From: a virus
Lineage: Duplodnaviria > Heunggongvirae > Uroviricota > Caudoviricetes
Length of the DNA: 32,229 bases
IMG/VR virus record: IMGVR_UViG_2529292920_000016
Strand: one strand, 5' to 3'
Shown: positions 8,674-14,774 of the stretch, in pieces
Layout of the letters: every line of letters starts with the position of its first letter
How positions within the stretch are numbered: the stretch's first letter is position 1
Program-made: the position numbers and the translations under genes
The notes under the pieces: model-generated
Databases searched by the model: none
The model's input: the letters and a program-made list of their open reading frames with translations, nothing else
Told to the model about the DNA's origin: nothing

Positions 8674-9068
8674 ATTAAAGAGCATTAGTTCAGATGTGAA
8701 TTGACATTGTGTGGCACAGGGTTGGGCTAGCGTGGGGGTTTGCTTTGTGTAAGAAACGGATGCTCTGCAAATTACTACTAATGCTTAATGTTAGTCTGAT
8801 CTGCTCCCCGATGATTAATACACCGCTATGTTAGTAATGTCTGTAGATCGCTGTGTGTTGCATCCATCGGTTGACCCCACAGTCCAAACCAGACTGTCAG
8901 CTTTGATTCGATTCTATCTACTCAACCTGTCAGGTAATGTCTGAGCTAATACACAGAGTACGGCTATCGCGAACTTTAAGCTAGGTATCTGATACGCACC
9001 GTTCACTTGGTCGTACTTCTTGCACTGACTAGCTATCGTGCGCAGTTATTTATAGGTAATCTCCAGTG

Positions 9069-9074
9069 TATAAT
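9069..9074 (+). promoter_or_regulatory. Candidate -10 element (TATAAT) upstream of orphan cargo ORF
   Basis: TATAAT at 9069-9074, ~40 nt upstream of ATG 9113 whose RBS is AGGAGG (9102-9107). No convincing -35 found. Confidence 0.25.
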
Positions 9075-9112
9075 TTTCCAACTTATGGGAGATTGTAAAA
9101 CAGGAGGAATAT

Positions 9113-9955
9113 ATGAGGAAAAAATCGTTTGGACGTTGCCCGTTTGATTTCGACGAAGATGTAAAAAAAATAGCCGCGATAAATAAATATATCCATGCGA
9201 AATTTGAGAGGCATAAAAATAAAATAGATAACCTAAAGGGGGTGGAACAAAAATTGATGGTTTTACATTACTTTAATGTACTGAATGAACTTAGTAATCA
9301 GGCTATATTTTCTTTGAGTACCGGAGCCTTTTCAGCATCGGAAGTATTAACTAGAGTTATAATGGAACAGGCTGCCAATCAATTTTATATAGCAATTGAT
9401 GATGGAAAAAATGCACAAGCATTACTCAAGGGTAGTAAGAAATTAGTTCATAGTAATGGGAAACGGTGGCTGGAGTGTTTAAAATCCAAAGAAATGACTA
9501 ATCCAGCAGCAGATGAAAGGATTCGTATCGGAAAAGAGCTAACTGATATGTTTAATAGATTGTGGCCAAATACACCTGAATATCCTGGAACCAAAAAGCT
9601 TTTCGAAGTAATTGGCTGGGAAACACACTATCATGCCTATTACGTCCCTCTTTGTGATTCAATACATACATTCTCTGATGATATGGCAAATATAGTATCT
9701 CTATATAATGCAATCCAAAGCGATAAAACTACTGCTATCGAACTCACTCTTGCAGTTAAACAAGAAAATAAACGGCTGGCAATTTATAATGTCGTAATTG
9801 CTATTGGCCTGCGGTGTGAGGCCTTAGTAAATGTATTTAACTCTTTAGGTTATCGAGATATTATAACTGAAATGGCGCCAACAATAGATGCAGTCAACCA
9901 GATTATAATTCGATATGATGATTTCGAACATTCCAGAATTTTTTATTGTCAATAA
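9113..9955 (+). CDS. Hypothetical 280-aa protein, AT-rich cargo gene of unknown function
   Basis: Long ORF in strongly AT-rich DNA with near-consensus RBS; codon usage unlike flanking phage genes. No recognisable catalytic motif apart from a C-terminal R-x5-H (RYDDFEH) that might be a HEPN-type motif (speculative). Confidence 0.6.
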   Translation: MRKKSFGRCPFDFDEDVKKIAAINKYIHAKFERHKNKIDNLKGVEQKLMVLHYFNVLNELSNQAIFSLSTGAFSASEVLTRVIMEQAANQFYIAIDDGKNAQALLKGSKKLVHSNGKRWLECLKSKEMTNPAADERIRIGKELTDMFNRLWPNTPEYPGTKKLFEVIGWETHYHAYYVPLCDSIHTFSDDMANIVSLYNAIQSDKTTAIELTLAVKQENKRLAIYNVVIAIGLRCEALVNVFNSLGYRDIITEMAPTIDAVNQIIIRYDDFEHSRIFYCQ

Positions 9956-10283
9956 TTAATTGGCAGAATTCGTACATGCACAACAACTAGTTATAGTTGA
10001 CCTATTTCGCTCTTGAGAGACAACCATACTCAAATCTTCCACATTGCAGGAGATTTGAGTATGAATACGTCACCGAGGAACAAAGACAGTATCATAGGCC
10101 CAAAAAGACCACTTCAGATATCTCATATCTGGGGGCTCCAAATCCGGCTTGAACTGGAAGGTAAAACGCGTGATTTAGCTCGGTTTCAAGCAGAGCTACG
10201 GTGCTGCAACTGAAAAACTGGCAGTCCTATCCAATTTGAGATAACCAAAGGGACAAGAGAAGCTGTTTCTGCATTGATAAAGC

Positions 10284-10581
10284 TTGGCAATTTACGCAGT
10301 AAAGACTACTTGTTCCGATCTCGGGTCGGTACTAACCAACACATATCAATCCTGCAATATAACCGAATCTTTCATAGGGGGGAGAAAAGCTTGGTCTCGA
10401 AGATTCGCTTTACAGCACACATTCCATGAGAAGAACAAAACCTTGCCTTGTCTGCAAGAAAACTAAGAATCTCCGGGTGATCCAACTTCCGTTGGGCCAT
10501 AAGAAAACGGAAAGCACAGTTCGTTATCTGGGTATAGAAGTTGATGATGCATTAGAGATCTCTGAATCGATCGAAGTCTAA
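10284..10581 (+). pseudogene. Degraded tyrosine recombinase (integrase) C-terminal fragment
   Basis: Frame ending at 10579-10581 reads ...KKTKNLRVIQLPLGHKKTESTVRYLGIEVDDALEISESIEV-stop, matching the conserved C-terminal LGH...T..RY (catalytic Tyr) region of tyrosine recombinases. Upstream pieces (...FALQHTFHE...) lie in another frame and no N-terminal domain is present. Confidence 0.5.
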
Positions 10582-10993
10582 AGCTGTCAGGGCTGCAGCA
10601 GCAGCCCTGTGCCAAGAGCGTACCAATATATGTCTCAAAAAATTGGGCACAGGTCAATATCAATACCAACAACTCTGATTGTGCTCATGTGATTTACTCC
10701 TGTAGAAAACGCAGACAGTAAAAATATTTCACTGGCTGCTTCAGACAGGGCGTCCATCATATCATTACATAACAATAGCGGGGCACGATATCTAGACATG
10801 CAGCAACGATGGACATAGAATGAGTACAATCAAAAGCATGTTTAACTACTTTAATTTAAAAATCTTAGAATCTTAGGTGTAGAGTTCAATACTTAGTTAC
10901 ATACCCTTTTGAAAGCATCACAAATCATAACTATGAGCCTGTTAAAGGCATAGGTATTCTTAATTAAGAGCATTTTAATGAGAGAAAAATAAA

Positions 10994-12367
10994 ATGAAAA
11001 GACTATATTATACCCATCATGATAGTCGAACCTTAAAACTTGCTATAGAAGGTGATGTTTCTGATAATGCGAATATTTTTACAGTAATTGTAGGTAAAAA
11101 TGGCGTTGGAAAAAGCAGATTGTTATCTCAGATTGCTAAAGACTGTATTCAAGATATTCATTTCTTGAAAACTTTTAATCCATTATTTGACAGAGAAATA
11201 ACACCAAAGTTAATTGCCGTATCTACCAGCCCATTCGATAAATTCCCTCCAGGGCGTAGGTCATTAAATCACCAAAGGAAAGAAAATAATTATCGCTATG
11301 TGGGTATGCGTGGAGAAGGCCCCTTCGGCGTATCAAATGCCGTATCCCTTTTATCTTCAGCAGCGAGAGGTTGGCTAGAGAAACTTGCTTATTCAGAAAA
11401 TCCTGCAAATTTACTCGATGTTTTTCATTCTATTGATTTTGAGCCCCATATAGAGTTTGTATTTAAACCAACTTACAACGGACCGGACACTCCTGACTAT
11501 AACTTCATTGGTGTATATTCAGATGAGATATTAACGGAAGTTAAGGAGTTATATTTAAAATACAATATAAAAATTGACAGGAAGAATATTGAGAGTCTCT
11601 TAAAGTTAAACTCCGAATCACGTCATGATATTTACGAAGCACTGGTTGAAATTAATCGATTTGAACCTGAACGTAGGGCTGTAACCTTGTCAGTCGATTT
11701 TACCAATGGTGAAACATTGGTTGGCTCGACTTATGCGAATAATTATTTTTCTAGATCAATTCTTAAACTTATGAACGCTGGCTTCATGAGATTGATGGAT
11801 ATGCGACTCATAAAAAAAAGCTATGGTCCCATGTCACTTAAACGTGCGAGCTCGGGAGAACAATGTTTATTAGTGATGTTGCTTGGAATTGCAGGGCATA
11901 TAACTGATGGTTCTATAATACTAATTGATGAACCGGAAATAAGCTTGCATCCTCGATGGCAGGAAGAGTTTATCATTATGTTAACAAAAGCATTTTTAAC
12001 TTACTCAGGTTGTCAATTCATAATTGCAACTCATTCACCACAAATAATATCCAATTTGCCGAATAAAGGTTGTTATATAACATCTTTGTCGAAAAGTTAT
12101 CTTTATAAAGCAAAATACTTTAGCAACCGGTCTGCAGACTATCAACTTGCGGAACTATTTGATGCCCCTGGCATTATGAATGAATACATTGCCAGATTAG
12201 CTTTCAATTTACTTTCAAAAGTTAAGACTGCTAAGTTAGTAACAGATGATAATTGGCGTGAATTAAAACAACTCCAGCTTCTCCTTGAAAACGTTAATAG
12301 TAATGACCCTATTAATGAACTCGTAAATTCCGTATCTCAGGTGTGTGAAATTTATGCCAAAAATTAA
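10994..12367 (+). CDS. ABC-type (AAA15/AAA21-like) ATPase, Septu PtuA-like
   Basis: 457 aa. Walker A GKNGVGKS, ABC-signature-like ASSGEQ, Walker B ILIDEPE, H-loop ATHSP. AT-rich; 3' end overlaps the downstream HNH gene by 14 nt. Confidence 0.65.
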   Translation: MKRLYYTHHDSRTLKLAIEGDVSDNANIFTVIVGKNGVGKSRLLSQIAKDCIQDIHFLKTFNPLFDREITPKLIAVSTSPFDKFPPGRRSLNHQRKENNYRYVGMRGEGPFGVSNAVSLLSSAARGWLEKLAYSENPANLLDVFHSIDFEPHIEFVFKPTYNGPDTPDYNFIGVYSDEILTEVKELYLKYNIKIDRKNIESLLKLNSESRHDIYEALVEINRFEPERRAVTLSVDFTNGETLVGSTYANNYFSRSILKLMNAGFMRLMDMRLIKKSYGPMSLKRASSGEQCLLVMLLGIAGHITDGSIILIDEPEISLHPRWQEEFIIMLTKAFLTYSGCQFIIATHSPQIISNLPNKGCYITSLSKSYLYKAKYFSNRSADYQLAELFDAPGIMNEYIARLAFNLLSKVKTAKLVTDDNWRELKQLQLLLENVNSNDPINELVNSVSQVCEIYAKN

Positions 12368-14400: not shown

Positions 14401-14402
14401 CT

Positions 14403-14558
14403 ATGAAGCAGCAAAAGGCGATGTTAATCGCCCTGATCGTCATCTGTTTAACCGTCATAGTGACGACACTGGTAACGAGGAAAGACCTCTGCGAGGTACG
14501 AATCCGAACCGGCCAGACGGAGGCCGCTGTCTTCACAGCTTACGAACCTGAGGAGTAA
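14403..14558 (+). CDS. hok: Hok/Gef-family membrane toxin (type I toxin)
   Basis: 51-aa product MKQQKAMLIALIVICLTVIVTTLVTRKDLCEVRIRTGQTEAAVFTAYEPEE matches the Hok family pattern (TM helix, then LTRK.LCE.R.R.G..EVAAF.AYE). AGGAG RBS upstream. Confidence 0.8.
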   Translation: MKQQKAMLIALIVICLTVIVTTLVTRKDLCEVRIRTGQTEAAVFTAYEPEE

Positions 14559-14565
14559 GAGACCC

Positions 14566-14587
14566 GGCGAGGGAGAAATCCCTCGCC
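14566..14587 (+). other. Perfect 9-bp stem hairpin in hok 3' region
   Basis: GGCGAGGGA-gaaa-TCCCTCGCC immediately after the hok stop; may correspond to the 3' fold-back element of hok mRNAs. Confidence 0.4.
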
Positions 14588-14627
14588 ACCTCTGATGTGG
14601 CAGGCATCCTCAACGCACCCGCACTTA

Positions 14628-14647
14628 ACCCGCTTCGGCGGGTTTTT
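14628..14647 (+). terminator. Rho-independent terminator downstream of hok
   Basis: CCCGC-TTCG-GCGGG hairpin followed by TTTTTGTTTTTATTTT. Confidence 0.6.
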
Positions 14648-14774
14648 GTTTTTATTTTCAACGCGTTTGAAGTTCTGGACGGCGCCGGAATAGAATCAAA
14701 AATACTTAAGTAGCGCGCAGGGATAAGAGGGATGGTCCCTTAAAGGGGAGAGCTAATTATCCGGAAGGATTCTG

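Follow-up and report, generated by a model that had tools for sequence, protein, structure and literature searches.

Gene content and borders of the accessory island

The window analyzed here comprises 32,229 nucleotides of a virus of the Caudoviricetes (IMG/VR record IMGVR_UViG_2529292920_000016) and matches the chromosome of Escherichia coli O127:H6 E2348/69 (NC_011601.1), in which it corresponds to a lambdoid Rac/Qin-like prophage that starts at an integrase gene next to potC. Between a ren-like backbone remnant and the hokD toxin gene, this prophage carries an accessory island with a gene of the DUF5677 family, the remains of a small tyrosine recombinase gene and a Septu defence system (ptuA and ptuB), followed by a sok/hokD locus that is split by an IS481-family insertion sequence (IS). 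The features are listed in Table 1.

Table 1. Features in and around the island (positions refer to the window; L numbers denote comparison loci)
Feature	Position	Strand	Evidence or details
Chimeric backbone remnant	8399..8673	+	RefSeq pseudogene; BLAST pieces onto L004, L005, L006 and L009
Left site, decayed (putative landing pad)	8709..8771	+	A-box TGGCACAGGG at 8712-8721; P2 GTTTGCT-TTGTGTAAGA-AACGGAT at 8738-8761
Left junction of the DUF5677 block	8801..8855	+	L-box at 8801-8838; P1 left arm and spacer GTCTGTA-GATCGCTGTG at 8839-8855
DUF5677 protein, 280 aa	9113-9955		Pfam DUF5677; phrog_4167 (family of unknown function)
Decayed recombinase block	10005..10623	+	RefSeq pseudogene; tblastn; alignment to intact copies
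Septu block (putative cassette), 2.43 kb	10631..13059	+	aligns to L096 6639-9067, 89% identity
ptuA, Septu ABC-type ATPase, 457 aa	10994..12367	+	PADLOC PDLC00283; Pfam AAA_21 and AAA_15
ptuB, Septu HNH nuclease	12354..12983	+	PADLOC PDLC00325, E=5.7e-82; Pfam HNH
Phage backbone resumes: end of a small hydrophobic ORF, then hok mRNA leader/sok	13061..13293	+	homology with L004, L009, L006 and L005 starting at 13061-13120
IS481-family insertion sequence, 1095 bp	13294..14388	-	exact junctions relative to IS-free FORC 064 (L002)
IS481-family transposase	13243-14331	-	NCBIfam transpos_IS481, E=1.7e-65; RefSeq name
hokD toxin ORF	14403..14558	+	Pfam HOK_GEF, E=1.5e-22; RefSeq hokD

A first-pass annotation, made from the sequence alone, had described positions 8690-14700 as one AT-rich insertion of about 6 kb containing an orphan open reading frame (ORF) of 280 aa, a decayed tyrosine recombinase fragment, an ATPase and HNH nuclease pair, an IS transposase and a hok toxin gene. 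All five features are present, and the AT-rich character was borne out, but the length was not. A 500-bp GC profile revealed a trough of 0.33-0.44 at about 9.0-13.2 kb, and comparative mapping onto relatives placed the cargo borders at 8772 and 13060, a unit of 4289 bp (4.3 kb) with a GC content of 0.366, compared with 0.479 in the left phage arm and 0.507 in the right one; none of 387 other 4.3-kb windows fell below 0.458. The right third of the annotated interval is not AT-rich (0.50 for the IS and 0.47 for the stretch from hokD to rem). The ORF ending at 8673, which had been regarded as a replication gene, is instead a chimera of the 5' fragment of a DUF1627 gene (homology to intact genes ends at about 8545) and the 3' end of a Ren-like/DUF977 gene (8605-8673), with phrog_630 matching its N-terminal part and phrog_142 (Ren-like) its C-terminal end. 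To the right of this remnant, backbone homology with three relatives extends to 8708-8771.

Among 5426 complete E. coli genomes, 17 carry at least 80% of positions 8400-15100, and the island block occurs in 17-19, always at more than 98.5% identity. Such rarity shows that the block does not belong to the conserved core of phage DNA; membership in that core was the outcome that the annotation had named as fatal to the idea of an inserted island. A single integrase-borne island with terminal att repeats was also considered and rejected, as the sole terminal direct repeat is a 13-mer that is expected about by chance and has its right copy within ptuB. This perfect repeat, ATTACTACTAATG, lies at 8771-8783 (left cargo border) and 12944-12956 (3' end of ptuB); it is at about chance level for AT-rich DNA, and none of the junctions seen in relatives falls on it.

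Septu system

The ATPase and HNH nuclease pair, which had been put forward as the likeliest part of an undescribed system, is assigned by its profile matches to a described one, namely stand-alone type I Septu. A defence-system profile search with PADLOC recovered both PtuA (E=1.9e-165, protein residues 2-455 on positions 3-447 of a 448-position model) and PtuB. The Walker A motif GKNGVGKS of PtuA occupies residues 34-41 (G34-S41, with K40) and the Walker B motif IILIDE residues 308-313. The ptuB gene runs in the same direction as ptuA and overlaps it by 14 nt, and its product has CxxC motifs at 56 and 93 as well as H75 and N91. No reverse transcriptase ORF was found in 8.7-13.1 kb, and Rfam matches at E<=1 over 8000-15500 included no retron ncRNA family, only sok and weak unrelated matches. 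Bare PtuAB pairs also occur elsewhere, as close homologues with 65-90% identity are present in three other contexts without DUF5677 and without the recombinase. The clade is widespread, with 1183 proteins collected at E<=1e-30. The Septu of E2348/69-type prophages is a distinct allele. Solved-structure sequence searches gave no match for PtuB. The ratio of nonsynonymous to synonymous substitution rates (dN/dS) of PtuA against two homologues was 0.14-0.16, indicating that PtuA is under purifying selection.

For another Septu system, DNA cleavage has been described. By analogy with characterized E. coli PtuAB, a PtuA oligomer might keep PtuB inactive until phage infection, upon which the HNH nuclease would cut nucleic acid and thereby abort the infection. 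In two E. coli PtuAB systems, tRNA-Tyr is cleaved on infection, the Walker and HNH motifs are both needed, and the outcome is abortive infection (PMC13096335); phage protection requiring ATPase and nuclease has been demonstrated for E. coli Septu systems other than the present one in the same study (PMC13096335). The present allele may therefore be expected, by the same analogy, to have anti-phage activity, with tRNA-Tyr as its candidate target.

DUF5677 protein

The DUF5677 gene at the left of the island had no match in PADLOC or NCBIfam, and neither a solved-structure sequence search nor Foldseek returned a significant match for its product, a helical protein. A word-indexed search yielded six homologous proteins and an exhaustive search 53 clusters. 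The residues R81, E85, F164, Y173 and H185 are invariant. The Rx4-6H motif of HEPN abortive-infection RNases (AbiV, LsoA/RnlA and the HEPN domain of Csm6) is not found in DUF5677: there is no Arg 4-6 residues ahead of H185, and R81 and H185 are located on different helices. Against the allele of a P2-like prophage, dN/dS was 0.36. DUF5677 is among the domains enriched beside small serine recombinases, for which reason a Bacillota ORF with this domain was chosen for the one reported test; it did not figure among those protecting Enterococcus faecalis (PMC12632615). Our best guess, held with low confidence, is that the protein may act as a stand-alone effector of the abortive-infection type. In two other loci (L012 and L013, positions 6001-7563), a 53%-identical homologue is followed 30 bp later by a gene for a 237-aa protein without a Pfam match; no recombinase or site lies nearby, and this arrangement may be a two-gene variant.

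Small tyrosine recombinase

The decayed recombinase is the most informative part of the island. The fragment recognized in the first-pass annotation is indeed a pseudogene, which, compared with intact copies, has an 82-bp deletion removing box I and, in addition, frameshifts. Its block starts with the spacer of a P1 palindrome (P1 and P2 are described below) and a 5' untranslated region (5'UTR) with a hairpin opposing the Shine-Dalgarno (SD) motif (10025-10063), continues with the pseudogene (10061-10581), and closes with a second hairpin (10588-10609) and the mutated P2 spacer and right arm (10608-10623).

The segment from 8796 to 10545, containing DUF5677 and the recombinase, is present without Septu in 36 E. 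coli genomes at about 89% identity. The two that were inspected are P2-like prophages in which the module lies between the tail-fibre assembly and tail-sheath genes, and the recombinase of these P2-like copies is intact (194 aa). The recombinase gene alone, with 88-94% nucleotide identity, was detected in about 800 of the 5426 genomes in unrelated contexts, such as a genomic island of E. coli Nissle beside HEC-08, the lambdoid hotspot, an island near ypjA and an NDM plasmid. At least 547 relatives were found among GTDB species representatives, of which the 80 retrieved share 61-97% identity with the query and are distributed over Gamma- and Betaproteobacteria and a few other phyla; the gene was further detected on 444 of 72,556 plasmids and in three of 50,697 deposited phages. 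Intact recombinases (about 200 aa) match Pfam Phage_integrase only (residues 35-184) and, as read from the sequence, retain R51, K79, H147, R150, H174 and Y183; PADLOC gave no match for the recombinase and a solved-structure sequence search nothing. With dN/dS values of 0.09-0.20, the intact copies, which are widespread in Proteobacteria, are under purifying selection.

Immediate neighbours of the recombinase include SIR2, NsnA, DRT UG4/UG17, pAgo, GajA/B, LmuA, SoFic, Old, PD-T4-2 and Avs1, together with LysR, SDR, MFS and GNAT genes. Defence enrichment among the 98 neighbouring proteins was assessed qualitatively, by PADLOC counts per family, and PADLOC returned nothing for several hypothetical genes adjacent to the recombinase. 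A role as a plasmid multimer-resolution gene is not supported, as in the two plasmids inspected the recombinase lies amid accessory cargo, away from replication and partition genes. In several loci a second copy or remnant of the recombinase is found a few kilobases away with cargo in between (L004 6482-6765, L015 9856-10455, L022 3956-4420 and L059 9745-10332), which suggests arrays with more than one recombinase block.

The hairpin of the recombinase 5'UTR (10025-10063 in the window, and in L014-L093) is formed by a palindrome, with a 15-9-15 structure in intact copies, and its anti-SD arm pairs with the SD motif and the start codon. In homologues of 60-65% identity the sequence has changed but the anti-SD:SD pairing is kept, and for 41 of 75 sequences the minimum-free-energy fold leaves no base of the SD motif unpaired. 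Because pairing is kept while sequence changes, the palindrome is better read as an RNA hairpin occluding the ribosome-binding site, and a lox-like DNA site was rejected. Such a hairpin suggests translational occlusion, perhaps against read-through transcripts.

Palindromic sites at the block borders

With a length of about 712 bp, the conserved recombinase block has the same borders in more than 20 contexts, and its ends are ACGTCCGCT...AGCGGACGT. Composite sites without the recombinase are found repeatedly in its vicinity, and each consists of a 38-bp L-box, the palindrome P1 (GTCCGCT-yyTCGCTCAy-AGCGGAC), an 18-nt linker and the palindrome P2 (GTCCGCT-yTGTGCCAgg-AGCGGAC), and it is the linker position that the recombinase gene occupies. 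On the left side of the island, intact counterparts of the decayed P2 site, GTCCGCT-TTGTGCCAGG-AGCGGAC, are located at the same position in L004 (2617-2668), L009 (3809-3860) and L102 (810-859). Homology to the P2-prophage copy of the DUF5677 block begins at 8796, and in the lambdoid as well as the P2-phage copy an L-box with the left arm and spacer of P1 stands ahead of DUF5677. The L-box and P1 junction of the window (8801-8855) also precedes DUF5677 in strain S88 (L007, from 4001 onward) and the recombinase in L004 (4438-4480). Site mutations in the window include GTCCGC to GTTTGC and GCGGAC to GCGTAC. All site copies in the island are mutated, implying that the array is frozen. The A-box decamer TGGCACAGGG has a third copy at 18449, far outside the island.

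An nhmmer model built from seven sites detected up to four further sites per locus, and 24 of 27 long matches were on the recombinase strand. The copies in the window lie below detection (E>10), whereas those of relatives score down to 1e-22. Almost nothing was detected in about 700 kb of loci with distant recombinase homologues, which have their own terminal inverted repeats of 15-22 bp and extra end copies. Sites were found in 1011 of the 5426 E. coli genomes, at one to three places in each, and when 40 records were sampled from the whole of the ranking, every match proved to lie outside annotated features. Repeats of the genome-wide REP type were rejected as an explanation, as the sites occur at so few places per genome and always in accessory DNA. 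A Fim-like invertible promoter switch between the recombinase and ptuA was rejected as well: no inverted site pair exists, site orientation is direct, and the scores for invertase families fall well short of the cut-off. Targeted literature searches found no description of this recombinase/site system.

Several gene blocks have their borders at such sites. The Septu block (GC content 0.345), present in 19 of the 5426 genomes, begins about 10 bp past a P2 site in the window and likewise in L096 (P2 at 6598-6628), where its context is chromosomal and unrelated, and its right end carries L-box-like/P1-like sequence (13026-13059). It would have been joined to the backbone at 13060/13061 by a deletion that took away the right-hand P1. 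In a Klebsiella prophage, a PtuAB pair with 86% identity is found amid the genes for lysis and tail. Whether or not a recombinase lies upstream, the ETEC_3214 block has its start at P2, and three further blocks common to different genera begin or end at sites. Elements of 195 bp that join the recombinase block ends with the gene deleted were observed in unannotated intergenic DNA (NZ_CP021736.1 2967324-2967518 and NZ_CM132969.1 3748642-3748836).

A cargo hotspot followed by a disrupted hok/sok locus

Alignment to related lambdoid prophages, which the first-pass annotation had proposed, both defined the borders given above and revealed different cargo at the same locus, so that its view of the region as a defence hotspot was upheld. 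Between identical flanks, five Rac/Qin-like relatives hold (i) QueH, a hypothetical gene and a KwaB-like gene; (ii) a methyltransferase with small ORFs; (iii) SDR, HTH, a small integrase and two hypothetical genes; (iv) PD-T7-1, a small integrase and a hypothetical gene; and (v) nothing but non-coding DNA of about 220 bp (strain A20). This nearly empty A20 locus consists of P2, the 220 bp and P1, and the same P2...P1 frame exists at the P2-phage locus. In a Cronobacter lambdoid prophage, this slot between P and RusA/Q is occupied by a PtuAB pair with 65% identity. The DNA from the ren-like gene to hokD is thus a true cargo hotspot.

The hok toxin gene, previously counted as inserted cargo, belongs to the phage, since sok/hokD, from 13061 onward, is conserved backbone that is present in relatives with entirely different cargo. 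The sok RNA is recognized by Rfam RF01794 (112 bits, 13133-13299). The 1095-bp IS separates hokD from its promoter, from mok and from the sok-target leader, so hok/sok is here a disrupted member of its family and not one contiguous transcription unit. The target duplication of the IS is the 6-bp AGGAGA (13288-13293 and 14389-14394), which is the SD sequence of hokD, 9 nt before the start codon; by inserting into this ribosome-binding site, a later event, the IS cut the toxin ORF off from its regulatory leader. Both ends of the IS begin with TGT.T and share ATATTGCAAT, as read by eye. The family match of the transposase is just under the threshold (score 221.4 compared with a cut-off of 224), and its ORF extends 51 nt past the mapped left end of the IS, with the stop codon in the flanking sok region. 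The IS occupies the same position in prophages with other cargo (L005 5792-6865 and L006 5592-6680), which implies either that the junction between IS and hokD spreads by recombination or that the hokD SD is a preferred target. Downstream of hokD, a terminator scan detected a terminator-like hairpin (14627-14644), which is overlapped by a weak Rfam isrK match at 14567-14648 (25.7 bits compared with a gathering threshold of 50), probably a chance match or the fold-back element of the hok 3' end.

In the first 20.7 kb, the window differs from NC_011601.1 by 19 substitutions and three indels and is thus not the RefSeq sequence itself; the differences include frame-affecting indels at about 17255 and 17528. 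Two prophage tRNAs lie downstream of the Q region (19106-19181 and 19279-19355). ARAGORN reports the anticodons CAT and Arg-TCT, and RefSeq names the first tRNA-Ile; tRNA-Tyr, on which E. coli PtuAB systems are reported to act, is not one of the two.

Interpretation of the island

In this prophage of an E2348/69-like EPEC strain, the island is very probably a mosaic of cargo, composed of a DUF5677/recombinase block and a type I Septu block, next to a backbone sok/hokD locus that has been split by the IS481-family element. The first block (8796-10623) holds DUF5677 and a tyrosine recombinase of about 200 aa that is now dead, a module shared with the tail-gene locus of P2-like prophages, and the second (10631-13059) would have been acquired separately. 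The single 6-kb insertion assumed previously does not agree with the independent distribution of the modules, as DUF5677 and the recombinase occur without Septu in 36 genomes and Septu occurs without them elsewhere. It is highly improbable that DUF5677, the recombinase, the ATPase and the HNH nuclease form one undescribed multi-gene defence system. In the 19 E. coli genomes with this Septu allele, DUF5677 and the recombinase pseudogene do lie immediately upstream of it and on its strand; however, these genomes are more than 99% identical across the region, so the linkage represents one inherited event. The copies without Septu are in P2-like prophages where checked, the 65-90%-identical PtuAB pairs lack both partners in three contexts, the recombinase copies inspected are pseudogenes, and a recognizable site lies at the junction of the two blocks.

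Several observations weigh against the overall reading of the island and its Septu system. A run in ptuB (12927-12932) has five A residues in the window and six in RefSeq E2348/69 and in the FORC 064 relative, which leads (after 12932) to a -1 frameshift of the last 17 codons and removes the acidic C-terminal tail GSITTNELLDDDIHLI of PtuB, a tail kept in RefSeq E2348/69, in FORC 064 and in three more distant homologues, Klebsiella among them; the window copy may be impaired, or the run of five may be a homopolymer sequencing error. Solved PtuA structures were matched locally only (E=3e-7 to 8ee4), so that the transfer of a mechanism rests on family membership. The target is not settled for the Septu family as a whole, tRNA-Tyr being that of PMC13096335. 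Promoter-like sites upstream of ptuA numbered 15, compared with 17 expected from shuffled sequence, and the literature searched contained no experimental study of this island.

A related and rather improbable possibility is that the island is a decaying fossil which confers nothing today, its AT-rich DNA being tolerated and perhaps silenced. Decay is visible in the recombinase with its 82-bp deletion and frameshifts, in sites that have all fallen under nhmmer detection, in the frameshift of ptuB, in the IS within the hokD SD and in the truncated DUF1627 and ren-like genes of the adjoining backbone. On the other hand, the ORFs of ptuA and DUF5677 are intact and that of ptuB is intact to codon 192 of 211, ptuB is complete in RefSeq E2348/69 and FORC 064, and comparison with the nearest alleles points to purifying selection on PtuA and DUF5677.

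It is tentatively proposed, with somewhat less than even confidence, that the island is a fossilized array of two cargo cassettes and a recombinase block from an undescribed integron-like platform, in which a tyrosine recombinase of about 200 aa resides inside its own site and co-oriented L-box-P1-P2 sites delimit the cassettes. The order would then be a decayed landing-pad P2 (8709-8771), an L-box and partial P1 (8801-8855), DUF5677, the dead recombinase (10005-10623) and Septu (10631-13059). Across Proteobacteria, such a platform would shuttle Septu, DUF5677, PD-T7-1, HEC-08, SIR2, Gabija, DRT, pAgo and small metabolic modules among genomic islands, plasmids and the hotspots of lambdoid and P2 prophages. 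Some IS transposase genes are protected against read-through transcription, which the SD-occluding 5'UTR hairpin recalls, and the recombinase block has sharp constant borders, terminal inverted repeats and 195-bp end-to-end derivatives resembling IS miniatures. These features suit a serious alternative, judged somewhat unlikely, in which the recombinase and sites do not move cargo: the 712-bp block would be a selfish IS-like element that inserts at an already existing palindromic intergenic repeat, or a local module for resolution or phase variation, and cargo would be swapped by homologous or illegitimate recombination. In its favour, too, some cargo junctions lie off the sites, namely the right end of the P2-prophage module (10545 in the window) and the join of Septu and backbone (13060). 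It is opposed by the restriction of the sites to one to three intergenic places in accessory DNA of 1011 of the 5426 genomes, unlike a genome-wide repeat, by the co-orientation of 24 of 27 long matches with the recombinase, and by several common gene blocks that begin or end exactly at sites in unrelated genomes; the NCBIfam Fim-type invertase model scores 25.5 against a cut-off of 222 and no inverted site pair surrounds a promoter.

By itself, the island is another prophage hotspot with a known defence system, which is an ordinary main conclusion; it is the recombinase/site architecture that deserves follow-up. The same small tyrosine recombinase and palindromic sites were observed at the borders of cargo in a lambdoid hotspot, at the P2 tail-gene locus, in an E. 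coli Nissle island, on plasmids and in many other Proteobacteria. A 2026 survey of P2/P4 hotspots left the passage of defence systems to and from unrelated mobile elements unexplained and found transposable elements almost absent (PMC13586616). The platform, if it exists, would provide a mechanism for such exchange of defence genes between unrelated mobile elements; and if the recombinase acts on the sites, the question could be addressed experimentally with a 600-bp gene and sites of 70-100 bp. The sites would also be a new sequence handle for uncharacterized cargo, DUF5677 included.

Relation to known systems

The arrangement of hokD has a parallel in E. coli K-12, whose chromosomal hok/sok loci were reportedly found by Pedersen and Gerdes in 1999 to be inactivated by insertion sequences. 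In both cases an IS parts the hok frame from its upstream regulatory elements; unlike in K-12, the element here belongs to the IS481 family and lies exactly in the hokD SD, which it has duplicated.

The Septu pair resembles Septu EcB88 of E. coli (PMC13096335) in its two overlapping, co-directional genes and in its motif positions (K40/D312 and H75/N91 here, K43/D316 and H75/N91 in EcB88). Unlike known Septu systems, this 2.43-kb block is bounded by recombinase-type sites. PtuA and PtuB homologues also form the effector pair of the type I-A Retron-Eco7 (Ec78; weak matches to NF041760 and NF041761; PDB 9kjx, 9vkz and others), whose reverse transcriptase and msr/msd RNA were not found at the present locus; scores against the retron models were 65.8 compared with 500 for PtuA and 30.5 compared with 150 for PtuB.

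With the P2/P4 hotspots (PMC9122126, PMC13586616) and the lambda ren locus, the island shares a fixed slot, set between conserved phage genes, in which AT-rich defence cargo is rapidly exchanged. It has the DUF5677 module in common with the P2 tail-gene accessory locus, and the present cargo follows directly after a Ren-like gene. What distinguishes it from the P2/P4 hotspots is its location in the ren-like/hokD interval of Rac/Qin-like prophages and the recombinase-type sites on both the cargo and the empty locus. Small serine recombinases have similarly been found to mark defence loci, lying beside diverse defence genes (PMC13552941, PMC12632615); the present recombinase is instead of the tyrosine class and occurs in Proteobacteria. 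In that survey, two tyrosine recombinase baits were unreliable markers across phyla, and sites or cassettes were not described (PMC13552941, PMC12632615). Fim-type invertases differ both in profile (PRK09871, 25.5 compared with 222) and in site arrangement, as 24 of 27 long sites here are direct with respect to the recombinase.

The present recombinase, with about 200 aa and no IntI-type extra domain, scores only 15.9 compared with 265 against the integron integrase model and 17.8 compared with 435 against PRK15417, and its sites belong to a sequence family other than attC, with an L-box and two 7-10-7 palindromes. Unlike integrons, the arrangement, which is known from sequence alone, has the recombinase gene inside the site, putative cassettes on both sides and cargo in both orientations. 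The likeness to integrons lies in a tyrosine recombinase gene beside co-oriented, imperfectly palindromic sites that delimit short accessory blocks, in the recurrence of one block across several arrays and replicons, and in a cargo that includes defence genes.

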